Below, one piece after another: positions 5,596-59,500 of a stretch of DNA of 64,000 nucleotides. Each line of letters opens with the position of its first letter. Within the stretch, counting starts at the first letter, position 1. The notes below the pieces were generated by a model. It had not been told where the DNA came from. It was given only the letters and a program-made list of their open reading frames with translations, and searched no databases. The translations under genes were made by a program, and so were the position numbers. Origin of the DNA: Eledone cirrhosa (lineage: Eukaryota); NCBI GenBank assembly GCA_964016885.1, contig OZ024740.1, positions 439,580,001-439,644,000 of the forward strand. Direction: 5' to 3'.

Positions 5596-5788
5596 GGGGA
5601 CCTACGTAGTAAATCGTATCATCGTATTTTTAGTTGTTCAAAATTGCCATTCATGGAAAATTTTATTGTTAACTGTATATAAGTGCACATACATTGTTAT
5701 CTGAAAAGGACACCCAAAAAGATTGGGGCCTTGAGCCCAGAATTTAAACTTTTATAATTATCAAACAAAAATTTTTCTTTGAAACATC

Positions 5789-7738
5789 ATGGCTGACTCA
5801 GTGTCACTCCTTTCTCACAAACTAACACCTCACACCGACACCACCATTGTAAATATTACTACGTTTGCCAACACTAAAAAAAATATAAGCAGTAGCAATA
5901 TTTTTAATTTGTCTCAGGCAGACATTCATTTCCCGCCATTACCAATGACTGCAGGTGTTAAAGCCGACACCACAACTACCACCGCGACAACCCCCCCCCC
6001 CCCTCACCACCACCGCGACAGCAGAAACAAAAGAAAAAAATAAATTAACTCGTGATATCGAAATTAATTCAACCAAAATGAACTCTTCCACAGCGACAAC
6101 CACTGACGCCACCACCACCACAACTGAAACTAAAATTAATAATAACAAAAATAACGATAAAAACAACAACAAAAATTACATTAAGAAAACCACCCTGAGT
6201 TTTGCTAGAGTAGCAAAACAGTGCGAAGCATTTCAGGAACTCAGGAGGAATTAGAAGAACCCCCCAAAATGGTAAAGAAAGATGGGTACAGGGTCAGCCT
6301 CACCCCACCCACCACCCACCTAATAAAATGGAGCATCGGCGCCTATGCACCGTGTCTTATCGAACAATTAATATAAAATCGCGCCGAGTGGAACGGGCAT
6401 CCGAGTCCCAAATCCAAAAAGCTTTGGGACATGTGTGGGCAAAAAAAAACCCACATCAGACGTGGGCAGAAGTATGAAACCGTGGACGTGTTCTTTGAAA
6501 CACCACAGGAAGCTAGAGAACACTCCATGGCCCCATTAAGAAGTGACGACTTCACACTCGTCCCAAACTATTGTGACCAGAGACTCGTAAAGATCGGGGT
6601 CACCCACGTTCCACCGGCCATCGAAATTCCCCGGCTAATAGCTGCCGTCCTCGCCGGCATCGAAGCCAACACCAAGATAATCGAAATAGCGAAAGAAAAG
6701 CAGGAGAACTGGTCCGGATCTGGGATGGAGCTCCTGATCCAAGCGGACCAAAAAAGCATTGAGGAGATCCCAGAGGTAATAGACCTCACTGACGGCAGCC
6801 ACCTCACCGTAATTGTCGAGGGCAGAAGGCCTAGGTGTGTCGTTTGTGGTGAAGGAACCCACCTAAGGGCTTTCTGCCCTCAGGCTAAAAGGTTGAGGCC
6901 ACCTCTCCTACCCACCCCAGTGACTCAACCATCAACACCACCAGCAGCAGAGATGGCAGCAACAACAGAAGCAACTGTAACAGCAACAACCCCAGCAACA
7001 GTAGCAAAACCAACACCACCACCACCCAACGCGCCAGAACTAGCACCAGCGCCTACACCATCCACCACGCCACAACCAAAACCAACGCCTGGGGAGTATT
7101 TTCCACTCCCCGGCCTATCACAACTGGAGACAGATTGTGACGACGAGGAGTGGGAAACGGTATCAGGAAAAAAGAAAAAAAGAAAGCAAAAATGAAAAAA
7201 TTCCCTTCCTTCCCCCTCCAAAAACAAAATACAGAGGGAAACAAATAAACTATTAAACAAAAAAGTTAGGACAGACATGCCACCATCTACACCAGCATCA
7301 CCAACCCCATCATCCCAAACACCAACACCATCACCATCATTAACCCCAACACCACCATCACCTACACCACAAAAGTTACCAAAATACGTAACAGAAACAA
7401 ACCCACAACAAACGCAAACAAAACAAAACAACCAAAACGATACCAACTACACAGCATTAAATTTGAACAACAACCAATTATTACACTACATCCAACACAA
7501 CACCAGCATCACAGAAAGAGACTACACAACAACCCAAAAGTTCACACCACCTCCACACATACAAATCACTCGCATCACACAGAAAACGTACATGACACTA
7601 AAACAAAAATTCACCAAAGACATCGGAGACTTCCGACAAGCACTCTCCAGGAGGATTTATAAGGACATCCTTCCTGAAGAGGCCACAAGCAGTGAAAAGG
7701 ATGGAGAAAACGTCCTTCCTCTACGAGAAGTAAGGTAA
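5789..7738 (+). pseudogene. ORF1 (gag-like nucleic-acid-binding protein, CCHC knuckle), frameshifted
   Basis: Fragments 5789-6043, 6431-7195 (CVVCGEGTHLRAFC = CX2CX4HX4C) and 7277-7738. Confidence 0.8.
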
Positions 7739-7772
7739 GTGGTCTTTCCCATCTTTTCCACTCCATTTCAAC

Positions 7773-10610
7773 ATGACCTCACTCAGAATAGGCAGCATAA
7801 ATGCGCGTGGCTTGGGGGTCGTCATGGAAGCAGGGCCACCTTCTCAACGACCTCAGGTCACTAAACATAGATGTAGTGGCCATCAGCGAGACCAGAATCT
7901 CCGAAGTACGGGCCTTCGCACCGATCTTCGGCGGCTACGATGTGTACGCATCTCCCAGCCGTCCGGGATCGGGGGAGGAGTTGCTGTGCTTTTTCGGAGA
8001 GGTTTGGATCTTGCCATACGGGCCATCTTCCTGGACCCAGAAGGTAAGTTGGTGGTGCTGGACGTGACCAGCGGAGACGGGCAAGCTTTCAGGTTAGTGG
8101 CCGTCTATGCCCCGACAGGAGCAGGGCGGCCTGATTTCTTCTGGCGACTGGAGACCTTTTTTGGAACGTCCGACTCTTTAGTGTTAGTGGGCGACTGGAA
8201 CGGGATCTTAGATGCACGTTGGGACTGTGTGAGATTAGCAGATAGGGGAGGAGGGTGCAAGAGTCTCACCAACCTGCTCAAGCGTTTTGAACTGTCTGAC
8301 AGGTACCGATTCGATTTCCCGAATGTGCCAATGTGGACTTGGACAAATCGCATAGGGTCATCCAGATCATATCTAGATAGAGTATTTTGTAGGGAAATAG
8401 ATAGGTCTAGCATAGGCTGTCCACAATTCAAGATGGTCAGCTACACGGACCACAAATTCGTGATCTGTGTGCTTGATTTAGATAGGCTTCATAGACAAGG
8501 ACCCGGCGACTGGAAGCTAAACGCGTCCTTACCAGCGTGCAAGGCCTACAGAGATCGTATTAGCGAACTAGTTAAGCGGGCGTTGATGGGGGCCATCGTC
8601 AACAACAAGTGATGGTTTGCACTGAAAAGAGCAATTAGAGTAGAGTCCATTAGGTTTAGTAAGGCTTTAGCAATAGAGAAAAATAGAGCAGAGGGAGAAT
8701 TAGTTAGAAAATTAGACGAAGCGCTTAGCAAAGGCTTCGCGACCGACGTACTTGCGGCGAAATTGGCCCTTGACCAATTCTTCAATGCAGGGCACGAAGG
8801 CTACGTTGTCAGAGCTAGGGTGCGTGCTCTCAGACACGAAGGGACTAAAGCCGTTCAATGGGCCCGAGTGGCGGAGGCGCGTCGTGGCAACAAAGCCACG
8901 ATCCGGTCTTTGGTGGACCACGACGGGCGCATGCTACTCGATCCCGGGCAAATGTGTGAAGCTTTTCAGCGACACTTCGCTCAGCTGTTCTGGGGAAGCG
9001 GCGAGCCGGATCGAGGGATGGAATTTAGTGTCTACCTCGACGGACTGCCGCGGCTCTCAGCCACTGAGGCGAAGTGTTGCGAAAAGCCGATAATAGCCGC
9101 TGAAGTACGGGAGGCAAAGATTAGCTGCACAAAGGGTAAATCGCCAGGTTTGGATGGTCTGCCCTATGAACTTTACATACAGATGCCAGACTTGTTCGGA
9201 GGCCTCTTGGCGTACGTCTACTCCAACTGGCAACAGACCGGGAGAATTCCCAGCTCTGTGAGCCGAGGAGGTGTGGCGTTGCTGAGAAAGGATCCGAACA
9301 AGAGGATAACATAGATAATTTTAGGCCCATAACTCTGCTAAACACAGAGTTCAAGATTTTGGCCAAGGTGCTAGAAAAGAGGTTGGCGCTTGTCGTTGGT
9401 GGTCTGGTGGGAGAGGCGCAGACATGCGCCATTCCCGACAGATCCATCCACGACAACCTCCAACTCATGCGATACATCGTAGAGAGGGTAGCTAGGGAAC
9501 CTGGCACGGGTGGGACTTTGATCAATTTAGATCAGTCGAAATCTTTCGATAGGGTCGAACATCTTTACCTAGCGGCAGTCCTGAGGGCGGCTGGTTTGGG
9601 CCCGTCTTCAGAGGCTGGATCGCTGCCATGCACAGCGATATCTGCTCGGTGGTGAGAGTGAACGGTCACCTTTCGGAACCGTTCAACATCATGCGCTCGG
9701 TCCGCCAAGGATGTCCTCTTTCGTCCCTCTTGTACGTATTGACTCTCCAGCCGTTACTGCACAAACTGGAGACGTTGAGGGCGGTCCCGCGCGAACTAGG
9801 ATGCGGAAGATCCGTATCAGCATATGCGGACGATGTCACCGTAGTGGTGTCGAACGCCAATCACATGGAGGCGATCGGCACTACACTAAGAGAATACGAA
9901 GCGGTGACAGGAGCAATGATCAAACAGCAAAGGTCAGTGCGCCTGCAGCTCGGCACCTGGAGAGGCAGGTCCATGCCGTCCAACAGCGTCGTCGGGCGCT
10001 TGACGGATGGACCAGTTAAATTGCTCGGGGTCTGGTTCGGTCCGGATCTCCAGACGGACAAAAACTGGGACGAGGTGACGAGCAGGGTGGCTTTTCTCAC
10101 CCAAAAATGGGCCGAGAGGAAGCTATCCTTGAAAGGTCGAGAGGCTAACGCGTATATCGCGTCCGTCATCTACTACCGCCTGACCGTCGTACCTTGTACT
10201 AAGCCCTGCCTGACTGCGCTGGAGCGTTTGCTCTTTCGCTTTTTGTGGAAGGGACGCCCTCCGATGGTCAGGCGTTCCATCTGATGTCAACACCCGCTAC
10301 GTGGAGGTCTGGGAATGCCGTGGCTGATGATGCGCAGACACGCGCTCAGGCTACGACATCTCCACCTCTTCCTCGACAGAGATCAGGTGTGGTCTCCGTT
10401 TGCTAGACGCGTCTTTCCCCAGCTCGTCTCCTTGACGGAGGTGCAGTCCTGGGTCAAGCGAAGACAGAGAGGGAGCGCTTGGAGACTGGAATGTCTTCAG
10501 GCGCTCACAGATAGAAAGTGAAGTGCTCTCTTCCCAGCATTTTGTTGAAAGATGGGTGAGAGACGCAAGAATGGCCCGAGTGAATGGGCCTACTCTGAGT
10601 ATGTCTGTAA
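7773..10610 (+). pseudogene. ORF2 APE endonuclease + reverse transcriptase, disrupted
   Basis: SINARG, GDWN, SYLDRV and TDH (APE); SPGLDG, RQGCPLS and YADD (RT); several frameshifts and stops; C-terminal zinc finger deleted. Confidence 0.9.
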
Positions 10611-10860
10611 ATTATAGGTGGAAAACTGGGAGAGGGCACTTGCCTTGGTGGTCAGGCTCACTGTGGCTTTTTAATGGGCTTTCTCCACAAATGTCCCTCG
10701 GAAGTCTCCCCCCTATTGGAGAATTTTTTCATTGTTCTATTATTACATCCGCTGTTTCTTGTTTTTTACACGCAGAGATGCCCATTTGTACCGACCTGTA
10801 TTGTCCTGCACTGTCCTTAATGTCTACGTTATGTAAACCCTTGTGGTTAATAAAGAAATC

Positions 10861-10879
10861 ATTATTATTATTACTATTA
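10861..10879. repeat. (ATT)n tract shared by a Tx1 3' end and a Dong 3' end
   Basis: Tail-to-tail junction. Confidence 0.9.
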
Positions 10880-13800
10880 CAGCTGCATTTATCTTGCTTT
10901 ATGTTCATACGAGTTATCACCAAGTCACAACCATTGACCTCAAGAGACTACAAGGTCCGCCATGTTCAAGAAAGAACATACATACTCACACATGCATCTT
11001 TAGTGTTTAGACTTGTGATGTACTTATATTGACAGAATCTTCCTTAGTATATGGGCAGTTCCCATTAGTACTATCTTTTGTATTTCTCCTATACGCGGGT
11101 TTCCTGGGATTTGCGATAAGTAATCATTAGACCCCTTAGGTATCATTCCCAGAGCGCCTACAACCACTGGTATTGTTTTAGTTCTCAATTTCCACATTTT
11201 TCCAATTTCTATCTCCAGGCCCTTATACTTGCTCAATTTTTCAAATGTTTTTATAGATACATTCTTGTCTATTGGATCGGACATATCAATTAGCAGGCAT
11301 ACCCTCTTTTTAAAGTCCTTCAATATTATATCAGGTCTATTTGCATCTATTTTTCGGTCTGTTTGGATGCTAAAGTTCCACAAGATTGAGATGTGATCTT
11401 TTTCAAGTATGGGAGGTGGTTTATGCTCCCACCAATTCTTTTGATGGGGCATGTCAAAATGCTTCCACATTATCCAATGTATGTATTGTGCAGCTCTGTC
11501 ATGCCTGTTTAGGTATTCGGTTGGAGCTATAGGACTGCACATTGAAATTATATGGTCAATGGTCTCTGGTTGTTTTTTGCATACACGGCATAATGGGCTG
11601 CATCCATTTTTTATTATGTTGGCTTGGTAATTTTTTGTTGGCAGACACTGTTCTTGTGCTAATATAATCAGTCCTTCAGTCTCCGATTTCAGTCCAGAGG
11701 ATGCCAACCACTGATGGGTTAAAGTTTTGTCAACATCAGCATTGTTAGCTCGTTCTGGATATTTTCCATACAGAGGCTTTTCTTGCCATTTCTTAGCCAG
11801 TTTCTGTAGCAGTTCTTTCTTTGCAGTTACTTTTACCTGCTTTGCTTTTTCTGTGTTTTCGATTTCAGCAGTAAATTGGACTTCTGAAATTTGTAGTCCA
11901 TTACTGTATCTTTGTGCATCTTTTGTAATGGAATATGATCTTTTGATGCTTTCGTGTTTCAAAACGAGTTTGATCATCCAATCATGTGATTCCCTTAGAT
12001 ATGTAGATAATCCAATTGTTGCAGTTTTCAACGCAATGTCTAACTGGATTAACCCACGTCCTCCTTCTTTCCTAGGGAGATATACTTTATCTGTATCTGC
12101 CTTAGGGTGATGCATTCTGTGCATGGTTAACAATTTTCTAATTTTTGTATCGAGCCTACGGATCTCTGTGCTTGACCAGTTGAGGACATTGTAACTGTAG
12201 GTTACTACTGGTATGGCAAGCGTGTTTATGGCATCGATCCTATTCCTTGCATTCAATTCCGTTCTTAAGATTGCTCTTACTCTGAAGTAACATTCCTTCC
12301 TTATCCTTTCCCTCATTGTCGAGTGCTTGATTCCGTCTCCTTCACAAACACCTAGATATTTGTAAGTTTTTTCTTGATCAAGTTCTCTTATCAGGTTCCC
12401 CCGATCAAGATTAATGTCTGAACACTTCAGCAGCTTTCCTCTGGTGAACGTTGCTTTGGCGCATTTATCTAGTCCCAACTCCATTTTAATGTCATCACTG
12501 AACTGCTCCACAGTGGATAATAGCCCTTGCAATTGTTCATCATTTTTTGCAAATAGTTTCAGGTCATCCATGTAGAACAAGTGATTAATGGTTTTGTCAT
12601 AGACTTTATATCCATGTTTGCATCATTGAAAATTTTACTTAATGGATAAGTGCGATGCAGAATAAAAGCGGTGATAAAGAGTCACCCTGAAAAATTCCAC
12701 AATTAATATTAACTTCTCCAGCTTCCAGTGATTTTGTTTCACTATTCAAAAGGAGTGTCGTTTTCCATGTCTTCATACTGAATAACAAAAACCTCCTGAC
12801 AACGGGGGATATTTTGAAAATCTCTAAACATTTTTCAATCCAACTGTGTGGCAAACTATCGAATGCTTTTTTATAATCTATCCAAGCAATTGGTAGACTT
12901 TTGTGTCTATTATGACAATCTCCCAGTATCATTTTGTTAACCAAAAGCTGATCCTTACAGCCATATGAGCCTCGTTTACACCCTTTCTGCTCAATGGGAA
13001 ATAGGTCATTTGTTATCAGGTGGTCATATGTATATTCAGTTAGGACTGATGTTAACATTTTATACATTGTGGTCAAGCAAGTTATCGGTCTGTAATTTTT
13101 GGGATTGTTTGTCTCATCATTCTTCGGAAGCAGGAATGTAATGCCGTTAACTAGCCATGATGGTATCTTTTCTGGCTCCTTAACTATTTCATTGTAAAGT
13201 TGGGCTAACAGCTCATGAAACTCTGTGAAGGCATTTATCCAAACATTTTGTATTTTGTCTTTTCATGGGGATTTCCATTTACTGGTTTTTCTTAGAGCCA
13301 AACGCAATGTTCAACTGTTATATTTTCTCATATTTGTTCCTCAAGGTGAGCTGTATCTTTCATTTGTCTGTCTATCCATGGGGCATGTATATTATGAACT
13401 TTTTCTTCGGCCCAGATATTTTCTTAGAAATCTTGCACTTCCTCCTTGGGTGGTATTGATTTAGCAGTTATTGTTGACTTACCAATTTTTCTGTAGAAGT
13501 TTCTTTTGGTTTGTTTTGAACATATTATTGTCCTTATAGAATCTAGATCGTTTTTCAAAGCGCCTTATACGAGCAGCGTCGGCCGACACTTTTTGCTTGA
13601 TTATTTCTATCAGCATGCCTATGTCACTTGTTGGTTTTATACTGTATTTTCTTTTCAATTTTCTAAAGTTAGTTTGTTTAACATGTTCACTTACTTTATA
13701 GTTTTTTAAAATTTCTATGTCAGATCGGAGAAGGTTTATTTGGCGATTGATGTTCTCTTGCCAAGTAGATTTCTTCTGGGAATTCCTTTGTTTTTTCATC

Positions 13801-14913
13801 TTCACTCCACATAAGTGAGTGGTGACCTTAGCCGATGCATAATAGAGATGATTTAAATCAGTAATGTATAGTTTGTTTGTGATGATAATGTTTTTCATAA
13901 TTATGTTAGTCTTGTGTATTATCTTTTGGTTCTGTTTGGAGTTCTGGATCGTAGGGAGGGTGTCTCGTTCCCCCATGTCAGATTCTTTCATTTTCATCCA
14001 TTCGATCATAATTTCATCCTTCAAGTTCGCAAGTTCATTCTCATTCATTTCTTTATCATTTACGATCCCATTGTTTTCATTTGGAGTTTCATCTTGAGCA
14101 TGCACTCCCTCCACTTTTTCGATCCTTTCTTTAATTTGTTCTGTTGTCAGTGATTCCGCCCCAACCCTGGGATTCGAAGTGTTACAATTTACCTCGTTTT
14201 CACTGACACATGTTTCATTTTCCCTTCGCTGACTTTGTGCTAATACCTTGATCTGATCAATTTCTATATCAGTTAGAAACTTTTTTTTACAATATTTCTT
14301 CGTATATTGGCTAGTTTGTTACTGTCAATATTGCCTCTGTTTTCGTGATGTTTCTTTTTCCAGTTGATATATGTCTGTTCTGTATTCGATGTATTTGATG
14401 GGAAGTACATGGCAGTGTAGAAAGCCTCAAGGACTTCTTCATTATCTTCCCTTGACCATTTTTCTCTCTTTTTCTTTGGATTTCGTGGTGGTGAGCATGG
14501 AGGGCCAACAGTAGGAGTATTCCGGTTATGGGAGATCTCCAGCTCCGAAGTGATGCGAAGGTTTGAACCATTAGCTGATTTTTCGACCCCAGTCTGGTTC
14601 CTCTCTGAGAGACGCGGCCCTATTTTACCCGGGTGACGGCCGATCCTGTATGAGATTTTATCATTAGACATTTACTTTATTTTGTCGCGTTTTATCCTTA
14701 TCCGCCAAGGGGTAATCATTTCGTGTTACCACTTCTAGAACGAGTGTCAACCAAGACTAGAGGGGTCGTTCTCCCCTAGAGACACGGCTATTCCCCGCCG
14801 GCCGCCATCCCGGTATTTCTTGGTCACGGGGTTTTCTTTTTTTGTTGTGTTTTTAAATTGTTATTATCATGAGTGGTTCCTTAATGTGAGCATTGCGCGG
14901 CTTAAGAATGAAA
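10880..14913 (-). mobile_element. R4/Dong-like LINE, family Dong-2, near full length
   Basis: Single disrupted ORF from ATG 14671 to stop 11024; structured 5' leader; (TAA)n tail. Confidence 0.9.
11024..14671 (-). pseudogene. RT-RLE polyprotein, disrupted
   Basis: Fragments 14273-14671, 13479-14114, 12639-13076 ([10 protein letters not shown]) and 11024-12580 (YMDD, CRVC..H..C, RHD, NRPDI..IDMS). Confidence 0.88.
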
Positions 14914-15477: not shown

Positions 15478-18400
15478 GACATCAAAAGGACAGAGAGAGA
15501 GGACTGGTCTGGAATGGATTTGGAGATTCTTCTCCAAATGAAACCGGAGGATATGAATAACATCCCGGATTTTGCCCGCTTGCAGGACGGGAAAACAATC
15601 CAGCTAATCATTGACAGAAGAAGGCCACGCTGCTTCGTCTGCGGGGAAGCAACGCATCTTCAAGCCTTCTGCCCTCAGCGCAAAAATGCAGGGGGTCGCA
15701 AACCTCCTTTGTTGCCAACGCCAGTGTCAGCACGGAAAGCTGCACCACCACCACCACCAAAATCAACATCAACAAAAGCACGGACACCAACATCAAAAGC
15801 AGCCAGATCACCACCAACACCAAAACCAATCCAAGGAGAAAACGAGGAAAGCTCTCCCACTCCCCCTACCCCCCCCCCCCCCCCAATTATACACAAAGAC
15901 AAAACAATAAACGCACACACAGACACAGAGACACTCACAGACACAGACCCTTTGTCTTCCAGCAGCGAAGATGAAGGAAAACCCAAAAGTGCAAAAAAAC
16001 AGAGAAAACTCACACAAAAAAGCCCCAACAAAACACAAAAAATACAGACACCACTAACGCAAACACTTCCCCAATAACATCATCACCAACAGCAACATCG
16101 ACACCACCTCCACAATCCCTGAAACGCAAACACCTAAACAAACACAAGTACAAATAAACACACAAATACCTGAAACTGCAGACACCACACCTACAACAAA
16201 CACAGACATACCCGAAACAACACCAACAAAACCATCACCACCACAGTCACCAAAACGAAAATAAATAAAACCACACCAACAAAATGTTAAAAACTTCGTG
16301 CTTGTCAGAAGGGCCAACGATAAACTGATGGCTCCCTTAGCACGAAGCGAGGACATTCAAACAGAGGGGGAGATTTTTTAAATGAGCACATTTTGCGTGC
16401 CAGATGATTTGCTTCTGGTCCGAATGTCACTCAATTCCTTCAAAGAAATTCGAGAGAGCTTTCCTCAAGACGTGGGAACCCCGAATGTGAAACCCACATC
16501 AAGACATTTAAAGGGGTTCCCAAAAGAAACCACACCAACCATGGAGGTCGAACCACCAGACCTTCACAAGACCCGGGAGGTAAGTAAACCTTCCCTCTCT
16601 CTCTCTCTTAGCTTACCAATATGGCCATATTAAGGGTAGGAAGTTTAAATGTTCGCGGCCTGGGATCACCCTGGAAGCAGGGTCGCCTGCTCAACGACCT
16701 CCGGTCGCTGGAAATAGATGTAATTGCCGTAAGCGAGACCAGAATTTCCGACACGCGCGCACTAGCCCTCATTTTCGACGACTATCAGATCTTCGCATCT
16801 GTTAGCAGGCCGGGAATGGGGTGTGGGGTGGCATTGCTGTTTAGGAAAGGACTGGATCTCGAGGTAAGGTCGATCTTCCGGGACCCGGACGGTAAGTTGG
16901 TGGTCTTCGATGTGAGCAGTAGCGAAGGAGGTGCCTTTAGACTGCTGGCTGTCTACGCCCCTACAGGGGGAGGACAACCTGACTTCTTTGGGCGCCTGGA
17001 GACCTTTCTGGGTACGTCTCGCCCTTTACTGTTAGCGGGGGACTGGAATGGCATCTTAGACGCACGCTGGGATTGTGTGGGAGTAGCCGATAGGAGCGGG
17101 GGATGCAAAAGCCTCAAGCACCTACTCAGCCAGTTCCAGCTGTCTGACAGGTATCGACTAGATTTCCCCAATGCGCCAGTGTGGACGTGGACTAACCACA
17201 TAGGGTCATCTAGATCGTATATAGACAGGATCTTCAGTAGGTAAATAGATAGAAATAGTGTAGGCTGCCCACTTTTTAAAACGGTCGCCTATTCAGATCA
17301 CAAATGTGTGATCTGTACGGTCGACCTAATTAAAACGCGTAGGTTAGGACCGGGTTACTGGAAGCTGAACATGTCAATTCCGGCACGTAAGGCTTACAGG
17401 GACCGAGTCAACAATTTAGTTAAGCAAAAGTTGACAGGGAGGATCATCAACAACAAATGGTGGGTGGCTCTCAAAAGAGAGATTAGAGTAACTTCGATAG
17501 AGTTCAGCAAAGAAGTAGAATTAGAGGAAAATAGAAAGGAGTGGAGCTGAAAGATAAGTTAGATGAGGCTATTTGTAGTGGCATCGCAACTGACGTGCTG
17601 GCGGCGAGAATGGCTTTAGACCATTTCTTCCATGCCAAACACGAAGGTTGCATTGTCAGAGCTAAGGCGCGTGCGCTGAGAAACGAGGGAACTAAAGCTG
17701 TTCGATGGGCCCGCGTGGCGGGGGCGCAGCGTGGTAATAAAACCACAATTCGGTCTTTAGCGGACCGAGACGGACACGAGATAAGCGATTCCAAGAGGAT
17801 GTGTGAGGCTTTTCGCCAGCACTTTGCTCGGTTGTTCAGAGAGAGTGGCGAGTCAGAGAAAGTAGCGGATTTCAGTCCCTACCTTGACGGCTTGCCGTGT
17901 ATCTCGACGGTCGACGCTGAGCACTGCCAAAGGCCGATTACTTCAGCCGAAATTCAGGACGCCCTCAGGCTGCATGAGGCGCAAGTCACCCGGTTTAGAT
18001 GGCCCGCCCTACGTGCTTTACGTAAATATGCCAGACTTGTTCTCCGAACTCCTCGAAGCACTCAACTGGCAGCAGAATAGGAGTATTCCCAGTTCTGTGA
18101 GCAAGGGAGTGGTGATGCTGATAAGGAAAGACGAGAACAAGAGGGATACATTAGACAACTTCAGGCCCATAACTCTGCTCAACACAGAGTTTAAGATTTT
18201 GGCCAAGGTGTTAGCAAAGAGATTGGCGCTTGTCGTAGAGGATTTGATTGGGGAGGCGCAAACTTGCGCAATCCCAGCCAGGTCCATACACGACAATCTC
18301 CACCTCATGCGATACATCATAGAGAGGGTACGGTGTAAACCTGGCTTCGGTGGGGCACTGATAAATTTAGATCAATCGAAAGCATTCGATAGGGTCGACC

Positions 18401-19955: not shown

Positions 19956-19956
<1 letters not shown>

Positions 19957-20945: not shown

Positions 20946-22943
20946 ATGGCTAATTCCCCTCTGCACCAAGCAGCTGAAAGCCTTCCTCACAAAATAACAC
21001 CTCACACCGACACCACCATTGTAAATGTTACTACATTTTCCAACACAAAAAAAAATATAAGCAGTAGCAATATTCTAAATTTGTCTCAGGCAGACATTCA
21101 TTTCCCGCCATTACCAATGACTGCAGGTGTTAAAGCCTCCACCACCACCACCACCGCGACAACCACCACCCCCATCGCCACCGCGACAACAGAAACAAAA
21201 GAAGAAAAAAATAAATTAACTCGTGATGTCGAAATGAAATCAAGCAAAATGGACTCTTCCCCACCAAAGACGACTGACGTCACCACAACCACAACTGAAA
21301 CTAAAATTAATATTCACACAAATAACGATAGCAACAACAACAACAATGACATTATAAAACCGACCCTCAGTTTCGCCAGAGTAGCAAAACAGTTCGAAGC
21401 ATTTACGGTAACTCAGGAGGATTTAGAAAATGCCAAACAAATGGTAAAGAAAGATGGGCACAGGGTCAGCCTCACCCCACCCCCCACCCAATAAAATGGA
21501 GCATCGGCGCCTATGCACCGTGTCGTATAGAACAATAAATGTAAAATCGCGCCGAGTGGAACGGGCATCCGAGTCCCAAATCCAAAAAGCTTTGGGACAT
21601 GTGTGGGCAAGAAAAACCTACATCAGACGTGGGAAAAAGTATGGAACCGTGGACGTGTTCTTTGAAACACCAGAGGAGGCTTGAGAACACTCCATGGCCC
21701 CATTAAGAAGTGACGACTTCACACTCGTCCCAAGCTATTGTGGCCAGAGACTCGTAAAGATCAGGGTGACCCACGTTCCACCGGCCATCGAAATTCCCTG
21801 GCTAATAGCGGCCGTCCTCGCCGTCATCGAAGCCAACACGAAAATAATAGCAATAGCAAAAGAAAAGCAGGAGAACTGGTCCGGATCTGGGATGGAGCTC
21901 CTGATCCAAGCGGACCAAAAAAGCATTGAGGAGATCCCAGAGGTAATAGACCTCACTGACGGCAGCCACCTCACGGTAATTGTCGAGGGCAGAAGACCTA
22001 GGTGTGTCGTTTGTGGTGAAGGAACCCACCTAAGGGCTTTCTGCCCTCAGGCTAAAAGGTTGAGGCCACCTCTCCTACCCACCCCAGTGACACAACCATC
22101 AACACCACCAGTAGCAGAGATGGCAGCAACAACTGTAGCAGCAACAACAGAAGCAACTATAACAGCAACAATCCCAGCAACAGTAGCAAAACCAACACTA
22201 CCACCACCACCAGCAAAACCAACACCACCACCACCCAACGCTTCAGAAGTAGCACCAGCGCCTACACCATACACCACGCCACAACCAAAACTAACGCCTG
22301 TGGAGGATTTTCCACTCCCCGGCCTATCACAACTGGAGACAGATTGTGATGACGAGGAGTGGGAAACGATATCCGGAAAAAAAAAAGAAACCAAAAAAGA
22401 AAAAATTCTCTTCCTTCCCCCTCCAAAAACAAAATACAGAGGGAAACGAATAAACTAAGAAACAAAAAAGTTAGGACAGATATGCCACCATCCACACCAG
22501 CATCACCAACCCCATCAACCCAAACACCAACACCATCACCATCATTAACTCTAACACCACCATCACCTACACCACAAAAGTCACCAAAATGCGAAACAGA
22601 AACAAACCCACAACAAACGCAAACAAAACAAAACTACCAAAACGATACACACTACACAGCATTAAATTTGAACAACAAGCAATTATTACTCTACATCCAA
22701 CACAATACCAGCATCACAGAAAAAGACTACACAACAACCCCAAAATTCACACCACCTCCACACATACAAATCACTCGCATCACACAGAAAACGTACATGA
22801 CACTAAAACAAAAGTTCCCCAAAGACATCGGAGACTTCCGACAAGCACTCTCCAGGAGGATTTATAAGGACATCCTTCCTGAGGAGGCCACAAGCAGTGA
22901 AAAGGATGGAAAAACCGTCCTTCCCCTACGAGAAGTAAGGTAA
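20946..22943 (+). pseudogene. ORF1 (CCHC knuckle), with frameshifts and a stop
   Basis: Fragments 20946-21494, 21454-21684, 21694-22458 and 22359-22943. Confidence 0.82.
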
Positions 22944-22977
22944 GTGGTCTTTCCCATCTTTTCCACTTCTTTTCAAC

Positions 22978-26880: not shown

Positions 26881-28968
26881 ATGGCTACGAAAAAGAATTT
26901 GCATAGGTCACTCCCATTCATTCCGTCTTCTTCTTCCTCAATCATCACTACAGCAGAGAGAAGATTGTCTCTCTCCCTCCCTTCTTTAAATGTGTCTCTC
27001 TCCCTCCCTTCTCTTTCGCAAGCGACGAAAGAAAAGAAAAGTCTCGTGCAAAGCGTGCAAGGTTTCTCCACGACGACGACGACAGCGACGAAACAGGTGT
27101 GCGGGAAATACGAAAACCCAGTTCATTCGTCTGACGTCAGGAATAATAGCAGTAGCAGCCGTAATAACAACAGCAACAGTGACAATGAAAACAACAGTAG
27201 CAGCCGCAACAGCATCACCAGCAGCATAAACAACAACAGCATTAGCAGCAGCAACACCAACAACAACCACAGCAACAGCGGCGAAGGCAGTAGTCGTAGT
27301 ACCTGCAGCAACAACAAAAGCTCTGACGACAACAACAGCAGCAAAGAAAAACCAATCTCATTTGCAGGTATTGCGAAAAACTTGGAAACAATCCTCATAA
27401 CAAATGAGGAGTTAGAGGAAGCGAAGAAGATGGTGACAAAGAATGGACACCGAGCAATCTGCAAGGCAGCGGAAACATTTTTCGAAACCCAAGAGCACTG
27501 TAAGGTCACGTACCGTACAGTAAGTACAAAATCCCGTAGGGTGGAAAGAGCCACAGAGGCCCAAATACAAAAAGCCTTGGGTTCTGTGTGGCAGCGGAAA
27601 ACGCACATCACCCGAGGCAAAACATATGCCACCGTAGACGTACTTTTTGCCACACCCCAGGAGGCAAAGGCCCAATCCGTAGTGACCCTAAGGAGCGAGG
27701 AAATGGTGTTCGTGCCATCCTACTGCGGGCAAAAAATTGTGAGGGTCAAACTGACCCACGTCCCCCCCGGAATGGCCCCTTCTTGGCTGGCCGCGTCTGT
27801 CCTCGTCGGAATCGAGGACAAAACAACTGTACTGCAAGTACAGAAAAAAGTAAGAGAAGATTGGGTCGGCACCTCCATTGAGATGCTAATCCAAACCAAC
27901 CAGGAGTGCATCGAAGCTATCCCGGATGTGATAGACTTCGATAACGGCACTCAACTGCCCATAAGTGTTGAGGGCAAACGCCCGAAATGCTTTCGCTGTG
28001 GATCGAAGACTCACCTCAGGGCCTTCTGCAACGAGAAGACCCTGAGAAAGGAGAAAACACCCCTCCTTCCGAATCCGGCTCCACGGCTACCAGCAACAGG
28101 ACAAGCGGCAACCAGGAACGATAGGTCCGTGGCACCCATACCAACGCCACGGAAATCAAAAACAGCAGCAGCAGTGGAAATATTAACAACAACAACAGCA
28201 ATACCAAATGCAGCTGCAACAGAGACTCCAGTGCAAACATCACCAACAACAACAAGTGAAAGAGTGGAGCTGGTACCCCTCCCCGACCTCACAGAATCAG
28301 ACATGGAGTGTGAGGTGGGAGAGGGATGGCAAAAGGTCGTAAGAAGGCACAAACGCAGAAGCAGCGCATCGTCGCCTTTGAAAAGGGAGGAAAGAAATGA
28401 GAAAAGGGTAAAGTCTACTGCAAAGAGACCCACAGCAACAACACCACCAACACCATCACCACCCACACTAGCACCACCATCACCACCGGCGACAACCCCA
28501 CCGCCAACAACACCTTCAACACCACCACCACAAGCACCAACATCGCAAACACAACAACAAAACACACACACCCAGCAACAACGACAAGAAAATAGCAGAA
28601 CCACACCCCACCCCCAGAAAAACAAATGCACGGCAATAAATACAAACAACAAGAAACTAATGACTTACATAATTGAACACACAGACATTTCACAACAGGA
28701 CTACATAATACCAGCACCAATCAAAACGCCAACTAACATAAGACTGCTAAAAATAGCACAGAAACAATACACAAACATTAAAACGAAATTCCCCAACGCA
28801 GTTGGTGATTTCAGGGACCTAGGAGGAACCATCAATCGAAGAGTATATTCAGACATTCTGTTAGAAGAGCCGACGACCAGCCGAAGGGACGATTCAACGG
28901 TCCCTTCACCAGACGATCAAGTGAAAAGGGATGTAAAAACCATCCCTCCTCTACCAAAAGTACGGTAA
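26881..28968 (+). CDS. Intact LINE ORF1 protein (about 695 aa): Ser/Asn-rich N-terminus, conserved core, CCHC knuckle, Pro/Thr-rich linker
   Basis: Open frame 26845-28968, first ATG at 26881; CFRCGSKTHLRAFC. Confidence 0.88.
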   Translation: MATKKNLHRSLPFIPSSSSSIITTAERRLSLSLPSLNVSLSLPSLSQATKEKKSLVQSVQGFSTTTTTATKQVCGKYENPVHSSDVRNNSSSSRNNNSNSDNENNSSSRNSITSSINNNSISSSNTNNNHSNSGEGSSRSTCSNNKSSDDNNSSKEKPISFAGIAKNLETILITNEELEEAKKMVTKNGHRAICKAAETFFETQEHCKVTYRTVSTKSRRVERATEAQIQKALGSVWQRKTHITRGKTYATVDVLFATPQEAKAQSVVTLRSEEMVFVPSYCGQKIVRVKLTHVPPGMAPSWLAASVLVGIEDKTTVLQVQKKVREDWVGTSIEMLIQTNQECIEAIPDVIDFDNGTQLPISVEGKRPKCFRCGSKTHLRAFCNEKTLRKEKTPLLPNPAPRLPATGQAATRNDRSVAPIPTPRKSKTAAAVEILTTTTAIPNAAATETPVQTSPTTTSERVELVPLPDLTESDMECEVGEGWQKVVRRHKRRSSASSPLKREERNEKRVKSTAKRPTATTPPTPSPPTLAPPSPPATTPPPTTPSTPPPQAPTSQTQQQNTHTQQQRQENSRTTPHPQKNKCTAINTNNKKLMTYIIEHTDISQQDYIIPAPIKTPTNIRLLKIAQKQYTNIKTKFPNAVGDFRDLGGTINRRVYSDILLEEPTTSRRDDSTVPSPDDQVKRDVKTIPPLPKVR

Positions 28969-29003
28969 GTGGTCTTTCCCATCTTTTCCACTCTATTTTA
29001 AAC

Positions 29004-44218: not shown

Positions 44219-47200
44219 GGCCGCACATGTGTGAAGACAAATCTGCGGGGGAAAAGGTTCGTAACTTTAAGCTGTTTTAAAGTGTCATTTTTTGTATTTT
44301 CTTGTCGTTAACGAAACTTAAGGTACACATCTTGATTTAAAGAGAGGGATACCTCTCAATATTCGGGCTTTAAACGGTAAACAACGTTCAGGTCAAAAGT
44401 TTAAAGGCAGCCACTATAGATGTCACCACGACTACAACGGCTACAGTCATGCCTGTCATCCACTCTACTGAACGTGAAGGCAAAACTCAACGTCTGTGAT
44501 AGCAGCAGTATCATCTGAAAACGACATCTCCACCACCGCCACCACCACCACAACAACAACAACAACTCAGAGCAATAACGTCAATAACACCGATAGCTTC
44601 AATGTAAACACGGATGGCGGTGGCAACAACATAAACAAACAAAACAACAACAACAACACAAATAACAACAGCAAGAATGACAACACCAACAATAAAAGCA
44701 TCAGAAGCACCACATTTGCTGCAGCAGCAGCAAAAACAAAGCGCTTATTGAATATTGATATTGATATTAGCAATAAAGATGAACAGTTGGCCAAAGCGAG
44801 GAGGCTAATTAAACGGGAGAAGTCCTGGGCAAACCTGACCATCCCGGACGAGGCAATAGCGGCCATACAAAGGAGGACGGTGTTCTTTCGATGCATTTCG
44901 GTGCAGACACGAAAAGTGGAACTTGCCAGCCAAGCAGAGGTCGAGGCTGCTTTGGAGTACATCGGAAGTAACATAGAGTATAACGCAAGAGGCAAACAGT
45001 TCGGTACCATCTCGGTACAGTTCAAAACCGAGGCCCTCGCTATTAAGCACTCGGTGACCCCCTGCAGAACGGAGCGCATTATCATGCATCTGTCCTACAT
45101 GGGTAAAAGGACAGTAAAGGTACGCATCCCAAGCATCCCACCAGGAATGAACATATGGTGGCTGCTGAGGTGCGTAATCGAGGAGGGGACAGACACTACC
45201 CTCCTGGATATCAAAAGGACAGAGAGAGAGGACTGGTCCGGAATGGATTTGGAGATTCTTCTCCAAATGAAACCGGAGGACATAAACAACATCCCGGATT
45301 TTGCCCGCCTGCAGGACGGGACAACAATCCAACTAATCATTGGCGGAAGAAGGCCACGCTGCTTCGTCTGCGGGGAAGCAACGCATCTGCAAGCCTTCTG
45401 CCCTCAGCGCAAGAACGAGGGAGTCGCAAACCTCCTTTGTTGCCAACGCCAGTGTCAGCACGGAAATCTGCACCACTACCACCACCAAAAACAACACCAA
45501 CAAAAACACGGACACCAACATCAAAAACAGCCGGATCACCACCAACACCAAAACCAATCCAAGGGGAAAACGAGGAAAGCTCTCCCACTCCCCCGCCACC
45601 AATTATAACATAGACAAAACAATAAAAGCACATACAAACACAGAGACACTCACAGCCACAGACCCTTTGTCTTCCAGCAGCGAAGATGAAGGAAAACCCA
45701 AAAGTGCAAAAAAACAGAGAAAACTCACAAAAAAAAGCCCCAACAAAACACACAAAAATACAGACACCACTAACGCAAACACTTCCCCAATAACATCATC
45801 ACCAACAGCAACATCGACACCACCTCCACAATCCCCGAAACGCAAACAACCTAAACAAACACAAGTACAAATAAACACACAAATACCTGAAATTGCAGAC
45901 ACCACACCAACAAAATGTTAAAAACTTCGTGCTTGTCAGAAGCGCCAACAATAAACTGATGGCCCTCTTAGCACGAAGCGAGGACATTCAAACAGACGGG
46001 GAGATTTTTGAAATGAGCACATATTTCGTGCCAGAAGATTTGCTTCTGGTCCGAATGTTACTCAATTCCTTCAAAGAAATACGAGAGAGCTTTCTTCAAG
46101 ACGTGGGAACCACGAATGTGAAACCCACATCAAGACTTTTAAAGGGGTTCCCAAAAGAAACCCCACCAACCATGGAGGTCGAACCACCAGACCTTCACAA
46201 ACCCCGGGGGTAAGTAAACCTTCCCTCTCTCTCTCTCTTAGCTTACCAATATGGCCATATTAAGAGTAGGAAGTTTAAATGTTCGCGGCCTGGGGTCACC
46301 CTGGAAGCAGGGTCGCTAATCAACGACCTCAGGTCGCTGGAAATGAATGTGATTGCGTCAGCGAGACCAGAATTTCCGACACGCGCGCACTAGCCCCCAT
46401 TTTCGACGAATATCAGATCTTCGCATCTGTTAGCAGGCCGGAAATGGGGGGGGGGGTCAGTGCTGTTTAGGAAAGGACTGGATCACGAGGTAAGGTCGAT
46501 CTTCCGGGACCCGGACGGTAAGTTGGTCGTCTTGGATGTGAGCAGTAGCGAAGATGGTGCCTTTAGGTAGCCGGCCGTCTACGCCCCTACACGGGCCGAA
46601 CGACCGGACTTCTTTAGGCGCCTGGAGACCTTTCTGGGTACGTCTCGCCCTTTACTGTTAGCGGGGGACTGGAATGGCATCTTAGAAGCACGCTGGGATT
46701 GTGTGGGAGTAGCCGATAGGAGCGGGGGGTGCAAAAGTCTCAAGCACATACTCAGCCAGTAACAACTGTCTGACAGGTATCGACTAGATTTCCCCAATGG
46801 GGAAACGGTCGCCTATTCAGATCACAAATTTTTTATCTGTACGGTCGATCTAGATAAATCGCGTAGGTTAGGACCGGGTTACTGGAAGCTGAACATGTCA
46901 TTTCCGGTACGTAAGGCTTACAGGGACCGAGTCAACAATTTAGTTAAGCAAAACTTGACAGGGGGATCATCAACAACAGATGGTAGGGGGCTCTCAAAAG
47001 AGAGATTAGAGTAACTTCGATAGAGTTCAGCAAAGAACTAGCGTTAGAGAAAAATAGAAAGGAGGGGGAGCTTGTAGATAAGTTAGACGAGGCTATTTGT
47101 AGTGGCATTGCAACTGACGTTCTAGCGGCGAGAATGGCATTAGACCATTTCTTCAATTCCAAACGCGAAGTTTGCATTGTCAGAGCTAAGGCGCGTGCGC

Positions 47201-50206: not shown

Positions 50207-53200
50207 GAGTCTGACGGACCTCTTTTTGCTCGCTCCCGTAAGTTTATTTATTTACCTGTCAAAATTTATTTATTGAATTTTTTTGTTGTTGTGTAAGTCA
50301 TACAAGTCATTGGACTTTGCCCTGTGAAGGGGAAAGAATAATATTTGGGCCTTTTGGTCCAAATATTTGAACTCTTTTACATTTTTTAAAATATATCGAA
50401 AAAAAAAAAAAAAAACATGGCTGAAACACGATCCCCAGCGTTATGTCTGCTGTCGTGCGACAACGACGTAGAAGTTGAGAGGAGCGCTACGGCGAAATTA
50501 ACAGAAATTGATACAACAAACACCACCACAAACAATGTAAACAAAGACACCAATGATACCAATGAGAACTCTAATTTTGAAAAAAATGACAGTAACAGCG
50601 ACAACGAAAATACAGATAACCAATAAAAAAATAAAACATGCAACAACAATATCAACACCACTAACATGAAAACAAATAGCGACAACACCAACACCAACAA
50701 TACCAACTGCACCGAGAACAACGGTGGCAACAAAGACAACAATGATAACAGCGACAGTGCTAACAACACCAACAAGAACAACGACAACAACACCCCCAAC
50801 GAAAACAAGAACACTTTCGCTGCGGCAGCAGCAAAAAAGAGGCCATGCTTCAACATGGTCCTCTCAAACAAAGATGAAAAGTTGGCCCAGGCATGGAAGC
50901 TCATCAAGCAAGAGCAAACATGGGCCAACTTAACTGTCCCGGTAGAAGCTATTGAGGCAGTGGAGCGCAGAACGGTGCATTATAGATGCACCTCAGCACA
51001 AACCAAAAGGGCAGCTTTAATCCCACAAGCAGAAGTCGAAGTCGCGCTGAGGTGCATCAGAGAAGACACCGAATACATAGCGAGGGGCAGACAGTACGGC
51101 ACCATTTCGGTGCTGTTTAAGTCAGAAGCCCTCACTATGAAACACGCTATGACTCCTTGCAAAACAAGCAAGGTCATAATGTAGCCCTCCCACATGGGAA
51201 AAAGAATGGCCCGTCTCCGCATTCCCAGAATCCCACCAGGACTTGACATGTGGTGGCTTCTGGGATGTGTGATTGTGGAGGGGGCGGATACCATCCCGAT
51301 AGAAGTGACCAGAACGGCCAGAGAGGACTGGTCCGGGGTTGACCTGGAGATCCTTCTCCAGATCAGGCCCGAGACAATCACAGACCACATCCTTCTTCAG
51401 AATGGGACGGTCATTCATATTATGACCGAAGGCAAAAGGCCGCAGTGTTTTGTTTGTGGGGAAAAAACACATTTGCGAGCCTTCTGCCCTCAAATGCTGA
51501 ACGATGCAAGGGGTCGAAAGGCTCCACTGCTGACGACGCCGGGACGAGGACCACAACCAACACCAGCACCAGCAAAACCACCAACAACAAAACCAATAGA
51601 AAGACCACCACCAACATTGACCACCCAGGGGGGAAACGAGGACAGTTGTCAAATTCGCACTCCCCTCAAAAATACACACAACAATAAAAACATAAACGCA
51701 CACACAGACATATTTACAGACACAGACCCCTCATCTACAAGTAGTGAAGATGAGGGAAAACCAAAGTCCCCCAAAATACAAAAAAGGAAACACAAAAAGG
51801 AAAAAAAAATCAACAAAGCACAAAATCACCCTCAATAAAAAATGCAGACACCACCCACGCAAACATCTCTCCAATAACACCAACATCAACACCACCGTCA
51901 CCATCACCAGAATCCCCCAAAAGCAAACAACCTAAACAGACGCAAGAACAAATATACACACAAACATCTGAAAACACAGACACCGCACTCACAACAAACA
52001 CAGACACAACCGAAACAACACCACCAAAACCATCACCACCACAACCACGCAAACAAATAAAATCACACCAACAAAACATACAAAACTTCGTGCTGGTCAG
52101 GAGGGCCAACAAGGAACTGATGGCCCTCGTAGCACGAAGTGAAAATATACAAAAAGAGGGGGAAATGTTTAAATCGAGCACATTTCGCGTGCCGGAAGTT
52201 TTGGTTCTGGTGCGAATGTCGATCGAATTATACAAAGAAATACGAGACAGCTTTCTTCGGGACGTGGGAACCCCGAACGTAAAACCAACTTCAAGACTTT
52301 TAAAGGGGTTCCTAAAAGAAACCCCACCAACTATGGAGGTCGAACAACCCGACCTTCACAAGAGCCCGGAAGGTAAGTAAACCATTCCTCTCTCTCTTTT
52401 TAACCTGCCAACATGGCCGTATTAAGAGTAGGAAGTTTAAATGTTCGAGGTCTGGGATCGTCCTAGAAGCAGGGTCACCTGCTCAATGACCCCAGGTCTC
52501 TAGAAATGGATGTAATTGCCGTCAGCGAGACCAGTATTTCCAACACGCGCGCACTAGCCCCCATTTTCGACGACTATCAGATCTTTGCATCTATTAGTCG
52601 GCCGGGAATGGGAGGTAGGGTGGCAGTGCTGTTTAGGAAAGGCCTGGATCTCGAGGTAAGGTCGATCTTCCGGGACCCGGACGGGAAGCTGATGGTCCTG
52701 GACGTGAACAATAACGAAGGTGGTGCCTTTAGACTGGTGGCCGTCTATGCTCCTACTGGGGCGCCTGGAAGACTTTCTGTGCACGTCTCGCCTTTTACTG
52801 TTAGCGGGGGACTGGAACGGCATCTTAGACGCACGCTGGGACTGTGTGGGAGTATCCGATAGGAGCGGGGGGTGCAAAAGCCTCAAGAACCTGATCAGCC
52901 AGTTCCAACTGTCTGACAGGTACCGACTAGATTTCCCTAATGCGTCAGTGTGGACCTGAGCTAACCGCATAGGGTCGTCTAGATCGTATATAGACAGGAT
53001 ATTCATTAGAAAAATAGACAGAAATAGTGTAAGCTGTCTACATTTTGAAACGGTCGCCTATTCAGATCACAAGTTTGTGATCTGTATGGTCGACCTAGAT
53101 AAGTCGCGTAGGTTAGGACCTGGTTACTGGAAGCTGAACATGTCATTTCCGGCACGTAAGGCTTACAGGGACCAGGTCAACAATTTAGTTAAGAAAAAGT

Positions 53201-56589: not shown

Positions 56590-59500
56590 TGACAAGATCG
56601 CGCAAATAGAGTTTCCCTGAAACCTCCACCCGATTTTTTCAAGGACAGCAGCTACGGACGGTGACCTACCGCACCGTAAGCAAAATCTCACATCGAGTGG
56701 AGGGAGCCACGGAGACTCAAATCCAAAAGGCCTTGGGATGCGTCTGGGCACGCACAACCCACATCACCCGAGGCAGAAAGTACGCCACAGTAGATGTACT
56801 TTTAGCCACCCCCCAGGAAGCAAAGTCTCACTCTTTGGAAACTCTAAAGATTGAGGAGATAGTCTTGGTGCCCTCCTACTGCGGGCAGAAAATTGTGAGG
56901 GTCAAAGTGACCCAGGTCCCACTCGATGTGCCCATACTTTGGCTGGCCGCGTCTGTCCTTGCTGGAATCGAGAACAGGACGACCATGCTGCAAGTAGAAA
57001 AAAATAGGGAGAGAGAACTGGTCAGGTATAGGCATGCAAATGTTTATACAAACTGACCAGGAATGTATCGACGCTATCCCCGATATCATAGACATCGAGG
57101 AAGGACTCCAACTCCCTATAAGTGTAGAAGGAAGACGGCCAAAATGTTATCTCTGTGGGTCGAAGGGTCACCTCAAGGCCTTTTGCCCGCAGTAGACAGC
57201 GAAGAAGGTCCCTCTCCTTCCAATACCTGGTCCGCTGCTACCAAGAGCAGGGCAGGCAACAAACGAAAAAGCCCCTTCCACGGTGATTAGGAGGGCAACG
57301 TCCGTAGCACCCGTACCAAGTCCACGGACAACTAAAGCAGCATCATCAGTGGCGGCAACACCAATAGCTACATTTGAAGTAGCTACACCAGCAACACAAT
57401 TGCCGAAGAGGGCTCCACTACCACCAACAGCCGTGGAGCACATACCACTCCCAGACGCCACAGAATCCGACATGGAGTTTGAGGCAGGAGTGAAGTGGCA
57501 AACGGTCTGCCACAAAACAACAAAAAAGAAAAAAAACCCTTAGATTCACCCTCCAAAAGCGAAGGCATACAAAGAAGGGTAAAGGCAGCAAGGAAACTTG
57601 CAGCAACACCACCACCATCACCACCAAAAACACCAACAACGCAAACACAACAAGACACACACACCAAACAGCAACAAGAAGAAAACAGCAACAAATCACC
57701 CCTCCCCCAAAAAGTACACAGCCATAAACATGGTAAAAAAAGAACTCATACAATATATAAAGCAGCACACAGACATCACAGAAAAAAACTACTACACCCC
57801 ACCAACACCAAGAACTCTACCGACAAATATAAGCATCATCGAAATGTCAATAGAACAGTACAAACCTTTAAAACAAAAATTCCCCAATGTAGTTGGAGAC
57901 TTCAGAGGGTCGGTTACCAAGAGGATATACACTGACATCCTCTTGGAAACACCCATGACCAGCGAAAGGGACGGTTCTACTGTCCCTTCACCGCACGAAC
58001 AAGGTAAGTGACCCTTTCTCACTTGCTCCGTTTCTCATCCAACATGGCCGTACTCAGAATAGGCAGTATAAATGCACGTGGCCTGGGGTCATCTTGGAAG
58101 CAGGGTCACCTGCTCAACGACCTCAGGTCACTAAACATAGATGTGGTGGCCATCAGTGAAACCAGAATCTCCGAAGCACAAGCCTTAGCACCGATCTTCG
58201 GCGGCTACGATGTATACGAATCTCCCAGCTGTCCAGGATCGGGGGGAGGCGTCGCCGCCCTTTTTCGGAGAGGCTTGGATCTCGCGATACGGCCATCTTC
58301 CTAGACCCAGAAGGTAAGTCGGTGGTACTGGACGTGACTGGTAGCGAAGGCAATGTTTTCAGGCTAGTAGCCGTCTACGCCCCAACAGGGGCAGAACGGC
58401 CAGATTTCTTCAGACATCTAGAGACCTTTCTTGAAACGTCCCGCTCTTTAGTGTTAGTGGGCGACTGGAACGGTATCTTGGATGCACGCTGGGATCGTCT
58501 GGGGCTAGTGGATAGGGGAGGAGGGTGCAATAGCTCACCAACCTGATCAGATGTTTTGAATTGTCTGACAGGTATCGACTGGATCACCCGAATGTGCCAA
58601 TGTGGACATGGACAGACCGCATCGGGTCATCCAGATCGTATCTCGATAGGGTATTCTGCAGAGAACTAGATAAGGCTAGTATAAGTTGTCCACAATTTAA
58701 AATAGTTGATACACAGACCACAAATTTGTGATCTGTGAGATCGACATAGACAGACTTCATAGACAAGGGCCTGGTTACAGGAAGCTGAACGCGACTTTCC
58801 CGGTGCGCAAAGCCTAGAGAGACCGGATTAGCGTATTAGTTAAGCGGGCGTTGACGGGAGCGATCTTCAACAACAGGTGGTGGTTCGCCCTGAAAAGGGC
58901 AATTAACGTAGAGTCAATTAGGTTTAGCAAAGGAGTAGTGATAGAGGAAAATAGAGTAGAGGGAGAGCTAGTCAGAAAGCTAGAAGAGGCATTTAGGACA
59001 GGCATCGCAACCGACGTGCTTGCGGCGAGATTGGCACTCGACCAATTCTTCAACGCAAAACACGAAGGCTGAGTTGTCAGAGCTAGAGCGCGTGCTCTGA
59101 AACACGAGGTGACAAAAGCCGTCCAATAGGCCCGGGTGGCAGAGGCGCGACGTGGCAACAAAGCCACAATTCGGTCTTTGTCTGACCAAAACGGGTGCGT
59201 GATGCTCGAACCCGAGCGTATGTGTGAAGCGTTTCAGCAGAACTTTGCTGAACTGTTCGGGAGCGGCGGCGGCCCGGATCGGAGCATGGACTTCAGTGCA
59301 TACTTCGACGGACTGTCTCGGCTCTCGACGACCGCAGCACAGTGTTGCGAAAAGCCAATAACAGCCGGTGAAATACGGGAAGCGATGGGTAACTGCACAA
59401 GGAGTAAATCGCCAGGTTTGGATGGTCTGCCCTACGAGCTTTATGCATTTATGCCAGACTTGTTAGGTGGCCTCTTGGCAGACGTCTACTGCAACTGGCA

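Follow-up and report, generated by a model that had tools for sequence, protein, structure and literature searches.

What does a consensus 5' splice site do at the end of a retrotransposon open reading frame (ORF)? The question is raised by a 64,000-nucleotide (nt) stretch of the Eledone cirrhosa genome (assembly GCA_964016885.1, contig OZ024740.1, positions 439,580,001 to 439,644,000, forward strand; hereafter the window, in whose own coordinates features are given). The window holds seven plus-strand ORF1/ORF2 junctions belonging to two-ORF retrotransposons that lack long terminal repeats (non-LTR) and lie between (ATT)n tracts. A first-pass annotation had reported G|GTAAGT at all seven, with the GT at 7735, 16580, 22940, 28965, 46210, 52373 and 58004 and a pyrimidine tract after each donor, and had proposed that removal of a 52-59 nt intron fuses ORF1 to ORF2 or, as a second option, that the U1 site protects the RNA from premature polyadenylation. 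The motif and the tracts are present exactly as described. The fusion is very unlikely, and we tentatively favour, at somewhat less than even confidence, a reading along the lines of the second option, in which the motif is a docking site for the U1 small nuclear ribonucleoprotein (snRNP) on unspliced bicistronic RNA and favours its full-length transcription.

The motif is conserved beyond the window. Related elements in the genome fall into eight families of two lineages (I: A, B, E and G; II: C0, C1, D and F), and all seven bases are invariant when one representative of each is aligned; 88 of 90 junctions retrieved by protein search carry the motif. Only 12 of 73 flanking columns, in the neighbouring ORF1 tail and spacer, are invariant (16%; Fisher p 2e-5), and 26 of 81 four-fold degenerate sites in ORF2 (p 7e-4); these p values overstate the case, because the motif was chosen post hoc, the sequences are related with only two deep lineages among them, and gap columns were counted as variable. 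By chance about 0.005 GGTAAGT would be expected per 80 nt, a figure to be read with the relatedness of the seven window copies and the two deep lineages in mind.

Two internal comparisons bear on the level at which the motif is kept. The ORF1 tail of the family B copy, directly 5' of the motif, is a diverged 43-nt tandem duplication of an E/G-type tail (28880-28964) that changed the frame at the motif; 22 of its 43 columns still match the source copy, and the motif is unchanged. A second GGTAAGT, about 310 nt into ORF2, encodes the Gly-Lys of PEGKL in the endonuclease and occurs in the window at 8043-8049, 16891-16897, 23248-23254, 46517-46523 and 58313-58319. This dicodon is GGTAAG in six of the eight families and has drifted in D and F, so that it is usable as an internal control. 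The drift of both the duplicated tail and the control dicodon favours selection on the motif at the nucleotide level.

In more distant L1/Tx1 relatives, neither GTAAGT nor GGTAAG occurs within 70 nt upstream of ORF2 at any of 44 distinct loci; these come from 75 of 80 metagenome loci, five having been dropped since the match began beyond residue 8. GTRAG lies within 10 nt of the ORF1 stop in four of 38 distant loci with a long, more distantly ending ORF1, a count to be read without a control set. Judged from these alignments, the motif is real, lineage-specific and of U1 type, and is probably under selection. The literature covered, which did not extend to subscription papers, Repbase reports or paper supplements, holds no report of it at an L1/Tx1 junction.

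The frames in which the motif is read had been given as AGG-TAA in A, CGG-TAA in B and GGT-AAG-stop in D and E, and this is correct. The Gly-Lys-stop reading (GGT-AAG-TRA) is found in five of the eight families (E, G, C1, D and F) and was probably the ancestral end of ORF1. Families A and B reached phase 2 via the 43-nt duplication, which is demonstrated in B. Subfamily C0 reached phase 0 via loss of 1 nt; its ORF1 crosses the motif as Val-Ser and continues for about ten codons to a TAG some 30 nt later, and the position of the ORF1 stop accordingly varies by about 30 nt among families. The frame of the ORF1 tail has thus been free to change, which makes the argument from frame real, but weaker than three independent frames would have made it. 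Of the original claim that protein constraint does not explain the motif, the difference in frame stands; what it missed is that five of the eight families read Gly-Lys-stop and that the other readings arose secondarily.

Individual junctions on the plus strand illustrate these states. The family A copy at 5596..10870 (ends approximate), an L1-clade, Tx1-like element between (ATT)n tracts, is dead, with an interrupted ORF1 and a frameshifted and internally deleted ORF2; its motif (7734..7740) contains the ORF1 stop TAA (7736-7738), pairs with the 5' end of host U1, and is followed by a pyrimidine-rich spacer with no AG (7741..7772) and by the ORF2 ATG (7773..7775), which, like the A at -3, is invariant in all families. 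The other family A copy has the motif at 22939..22945 and the ORF2 ATG at 22978. In the family B copy (motif 28964..28970, ORF2 ATG 29004) the ORF1 frame is open over 26830-28968. Family D (52372..52378) ends as Gly-Lys-TAA, with the ORF2 ATG at 52413, and family E (58003..58009) as Gly-Lys-TGA, with the ATG at 58044. The two C copies had been set aside as decayed, which holds for the one at 46209..46215 (ORF2 ATG 46251); the one at 16579..16585, with the ORF1 stop TAG at 16609-16611 and the ORF2 ATG at 16621, belongs to the amplified subfamily C0, whose ORF1 is in phase 0.

If the motif is a splice donor, an acceptor should lie nearby. The intron arithmetic behind the proposed fusion is right: the cuts span 52, 52 and 53 nt and end at a phase-2 CAG in the two A copies and the B copy, and span 59 nt and end at a phase-1 TAG at both 52373 and 58004. 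The competing upstream CAG ascribed to D is misplaced; it lies, out of frame and at 54 nt, at 58004 (E), and 52373 (D) has AAG and GAG there. The donor is complementary to host U1, as in a U2-type intron. The first AG after it is in frame in A and B (52-53 nt) and likewise in C0 (about 30 nt); a TAG at 53-59 nt is in frame in D, E, F and C1, and animal introns of 50-90 nt are known (PMC13644364). With three to five AGs within reach, however, an in-frame AG is expected by chance, and in E, F, G, D and C1 the AG nearest the donor is not in frame. No acceptor is common to the families; ORF1 crosses the donor in three phases, the fusion needs a different acceptor in each phase class, and the conserved 3' splice site yielding the same product across families that marks a U2-type intron is absent. 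In 11 of 12 family G copies (the twelfth, having lost the ATG, is unscorable) an in-frame AG comes no earlier than 122-137 nt, and a cut there would delete the invariant endonuclease residues N10 and G13. C elements have amplified in both phase 0 (26) and phase 1 (33) with the same acceptors, as counted by hand among the first 100 matches listed, the remaining 41 being F-type. ORF2 has its own ATG 35-41 nt 3' of the GT in every family (38-41 nt in the window copies), and this ATG, the purine (A) at -3 and several positions in the first codons, all of which would lie inside the intron, do not vary. In the first A copy, the proposed CAG acceptor (7784..7786) supplies with its AG the first two bases of ORF2 Arg5.

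The genome also records which RNA is copied. L1 proteins work in cis, and about 2% of full-length human L1 insertions are genomic copies of spliced RNAs (PMC5860796). If cis preference, assumed here from human L1, holds for these elements, then a fusion mRNA should itself be the RNA that is copied, and intron-less retroposed copies, as for any U2-type intron in this setting, are expected. Genome-wide matches to exon-end anchors whose next two bases are not GT were sought with patterns that cover each of the junctions proposed in the first-pass annotation, though not every conceivable one, and that pass over A and B anchors followed by G plus non-T, D and E/G anchors followed by non-G, and copies with mutated anchors. 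None of the 96 variant matches is spliced, against 5,669 copies that retain the GT: 50 against 2,334 in A, six against 1,479 in B, 14 against 747 in C/F, 18 against 649 in E/G (nine of the 18 are B-type duplications) and eight against 460 in D. Inspection of every one of the 96 showed substitutions, small indels or the duplication. The thousands of genomic copies record that it is unspliced RNA that gets copied. Contigs of four of seven runs (X1, X2, X5 and X7), of unrecorded or guessed kind, were aligned to an intact B copy and carry no weight either way: the donor starts none of the 15 joints listed (there are 2,082 further joints), one X5 contig spans the junction unspliced, and X1 does not cover it. 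Given cis preference, the spliced fusion is largely refuted, and we regard it as a very remote prospect.

A donor without a partner, kept regardless of frame, fits U1 docking on unspliced RNA. Host U1 small nuclear RNA (snRNA) starts with ATACTTACCTG in eight of eight loci, the canonical 5' end, which pairs with all seven window sites. (The U1 snRNA genes form a tandem array with a 2.67-kb period, G000:C2:180973544-180995099 and C1128.) By a crude U1-pairing score, the motif is the top sense-strand GT site in three of five elements, ranking third in A and seventh in B. The scheme would be as follows: U1 snRNP binds the motif at the end of ORF1 without splicing; the bound U1 helps an A-rich, intronless 6-kb RNA to reach full length; and ribosomes start ORF2 at its own AUG, with both genes on one unspliced RNA. 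ORF1 is indeed 36-44% A, and in the last 500 nt 5' of the motif ten A[AT]TAAA hexamers are observed in five related elements, where 3.6 are expected. A regulatory role through U1 is plausible, and we tentatively infer U1 binding, the suppression of premature cleavage and termination, and translation of ORF2 from its own start. Because several families are young and intact, with hundreds to thousands of copies, the idea is directly testable.

Several observations weigh against U1 docking. The unconserved endonuclease site pairs with U1 nearly as well as the motif does (-10.6 versus -10.4 to -12.3). The coding sequence that holds the upstream hexamers is poor in T (13-16%), and the hexamers may be by-products of codon usage and are not independent across families, which makes their support weak; 3' of the motif, ORF2 has few hexamers (0-2), so that the target of suppression is uncertain. 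Structure prediction places all or part of the motif in a stem in most families, which would hinder U1, although the stems differ and are weak. With two deep lineages, and five of the eight families reading Gly-Lys-stop, there are few independent tests. Finally, the motif is lineage-specific, and its absence from the 44 distant relatives means that the clade at large does not need it.

Three other explanations deserve consideration. The motif may simply be an inherited Gly-Lys-stop, or a stop-codon context, with no function of its own, in which case the frame changes in A/B and C0 would be too recent for erosion. The five families with GGT-AAG-TRA, the existence of only two deep lineages (about 0.5 identity at four-fold sites) and the absence of the motif in the 44 distant relatives all agree with this, and if Gly-Lys-stop were constrained, just two wobble positions would be free to vary. 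Yet A/B and C0 amplified to thousands of copies with other ORF1 ends, so Gly-Lys-stop is not required; the adjoining tail and spacer columns have diverged, and the control Gly-Lys site in the endonuclease has drifted. We consider mere inheritance unlikely. Only a little less probable is that a hairpin or spacer element around the ORF1 stop, fixed at 35-41 nt from the ORF2 AUG, tunes termination and reinitiation, the U1 match being incidental. The distance to the ATG is fixed in all families; a 7-bp stem over (G)GAAGGU...ACCUU can be drawn in C0, D and F, while E and G allow a 9-bp stem with the downstream UCACUUGC. In SART1 and human L1, translation of ORF2 depends on that of ORF1 (PMC2881922), and RNA structure affects ORF2 translation in SART1 (PMC3894237). 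What tells against this account is that the stems differ among families, that fold z-scores range from +0.04 to -2.0, that the ORF1 stop itself shifts by about 30 nt, and that at -2.8 kcal/mol the consensus fold is weak and its stem over the motif shows no two-sided change; a single conserved hairpin is supported neither by the family folds nor by the consensus fold.

The third alternative is a switch of the kind known from Copia elements, in which splicing from the donor to a far-off acceptor, or early termination linked to the donor, would give an ORF1-only mRNA. Such an RNA makes no ORF2 in cis and so would leave no genomic copies; the switch accounts for both the indifference to frame and the absent copies, and has a precedent in the Arabidopsis Ty1/Copia element EVD (PMC5580714). 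In A/B a polypyrimidine-CAG does lie about 70 nt upstream of the terminal AATAAA, in a long pyrimidine tract (L118:8080-8112; window ~32560-32590). In the remaining families only the U-rich tract persists; the AG is absent from the 3' untranslated region (UTR) of C, D, E, F and G, and an acceptor there as a general feature was accordingly rejected. A scan of four elements found no strong acceptor in common. Moreover, even short, trans-mobilised copies would preserve a junction lying about 95 nt from the 3' end, and none of the 56 A/B variants, as against 3,813 retained, is spliced. We hold this switch to be distinctly improbable, the more so than either inheritance or the hairpin.

Docking of U1 on unspliced RNA has its closest parallels outside the non-LTR elements. 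In Ty1/Copia elements the donor at the end of gag is conserved, and U1 bound there represses premature termination of EVD, so that RNA of full length can be made; mutation of the EVD donor gives unspliced RNAs that partly end at a cryptic poly(A) site (PMC5580714). The Eledone elements share with EVD a conserved U1-type donor where the structural ORF ends. EVD, however, is an LTR element with a single gag-pol ORF, a real intron and a demonstrated spliced gag mRNA (PMC5580714), whereas here we have non-LTR elements with two ORFs, a separate AUG and no common acceptor, described at the level of sequence. U1 on the major donor of HIV-1 and foamy virus likewise suppresses a poly(A) site; as there, the donor here would act via U1, near poly(A)-like hexamers, but the viral donor is also spliced and guards one defined LTR poly(A) site, where here there are only hexamers (PMC12789967). 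Conserved donor motifs occur in L1-clade RNA as well: in human L1 they lie in the 5'UTR, are used (SpORF2, a splice from the 5'UTR to ORF2, and SpIREs) and leave spliced genomic copies, in contrast to the Eledone donor at the ORF1 stop, for which no spliced genomic copies were found (PMC2896524, PMC5860796). One human L1 donor is kept because it overlaps a RUNX3 site, an example of conservation that need not mean a splicing function (PMC2896524, PMC5860796). Initiation of ORF2 at its own AUG, as proposed here, would follow the pattern of SART1 and human L1, in which translation of ORF2 relies on that of ORF1 (PMC2881922, PMC3894237).

It is understood for few two-ORF long interspersed nuclear elements (LINEs) how the ratio of ORF1 to ORF2 is controlled and how early termination is avoided. 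If the conserved motif at the ORF1 stop is a U1 site, it would be a non-LTR counterpart of Copia and retroviral control. A stronger version, in which a LINE lineage has converged on the Copia/retroviral trick, so that hairpin-gated U1 at the ORF1 stop chooses between full-length and ORF1-only RNA, seems to us unlikely on present sequence evidence; were it true, the ORF1:ORF2 ratio would be set co-transcriptionally, beyond translational reinitiation alone.

The elements themselves are ordinary L1-group retrotransposons. ORF2 of intact B and F copies has an N-terminal APE-type endonuclease (PF03372), a reverse transcriptase (RT, PF00078) and a C-terminal zinc-binding domain (zf-RVT, PF13966), and its best PDB match is human L1 ORF2p (E 2e-52; R2, E 9e-22). 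There is a separate upstream ORF1, a 3'UTR with a poly(A) signal (AATAAA, followed by (ATT)n) as simple-repeat tail, and no LTR. ORF1 frames are open over 640-710 amino acids and contain a CCHC-like motif, and have no significant match in Pfam. The inspected full-length copies (no genome-wide count was made) start and finish in (ATT)n and form tandem arrays, a target-sequence preference of the Tx1 kind. We call the elements Tx1-like by resemblance, rather than from an RT tree against named Tx1 families. Microsatellite targeting is known for Tx1 members, among them Kibi and Koshi, which like the present elements are animal two-ORF endonuclease/RT elements in microsatellites; their target is (TC)n or (TTC)n, and here it is (ATT)n (PMC4494074).

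The 3.0-Gb genome contains about 26,000 first-look candidates for the ORF2 N-terminus. B and F, whose copies are young and often intact, share 77% DNA identity in ORF2. Queries for deeper families with distant proteins returned family F or RTE-like elements, and a decayed-fragment query mostly family D, so that two lineages are comparable. In families F and B, nearly identical young copies also stand head to tail, up to about ten in a row at intervals of 5.8-6.1 kb, each unit inserted in the (ATT)n tail of the preceding copy (G000:C1:423365215-423418069; C4:157083597-157101460; C1:55433115-55453278).

Among minor observations, donor-like sites lie 30-45 nt from the 5' end in the unrelated 5'UTRs of A, B, C, D and F (window 26664-26720, 20740-20790, 44219-44265 and 50207-50245; L117:4283-4325). 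They were rejected as a signal, since 6-64% of other windows reach an equal crude score. The human SpORF2 splice (PMC2896524) prompted a test at the F site, the F spacer ending in a good CAG; its three variant matches are all point mutants, and none is spliced. Six distant metagenome relatives (L167, L184, L200, L206, L209 and L210) lack a Met anywhere from the last in-frame stop to the start of the endonuclease domain, and non-AUG or spliced starts are possible there. Rfam has no match in the window. The minus strand carries fragments of RT elements of a different type, interleaved with the plus-strand elements (38-2499, 11024-14318, 32911-43070 and 63058-63681); they have a zinc motif at the C-terminus and a nuclease region of the PD..D type, and are probably R4/Dong-like. 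Repeated inter-element pieces of 200-400 nt (10858-11329, 19904-20719 and 61707-62183) match the 3' end of a minus-strand RT element. The mix of L1-Tx1, R4-like and RTE elements appears to resemble that listed for Octopus vulgaris (PMC13282606).

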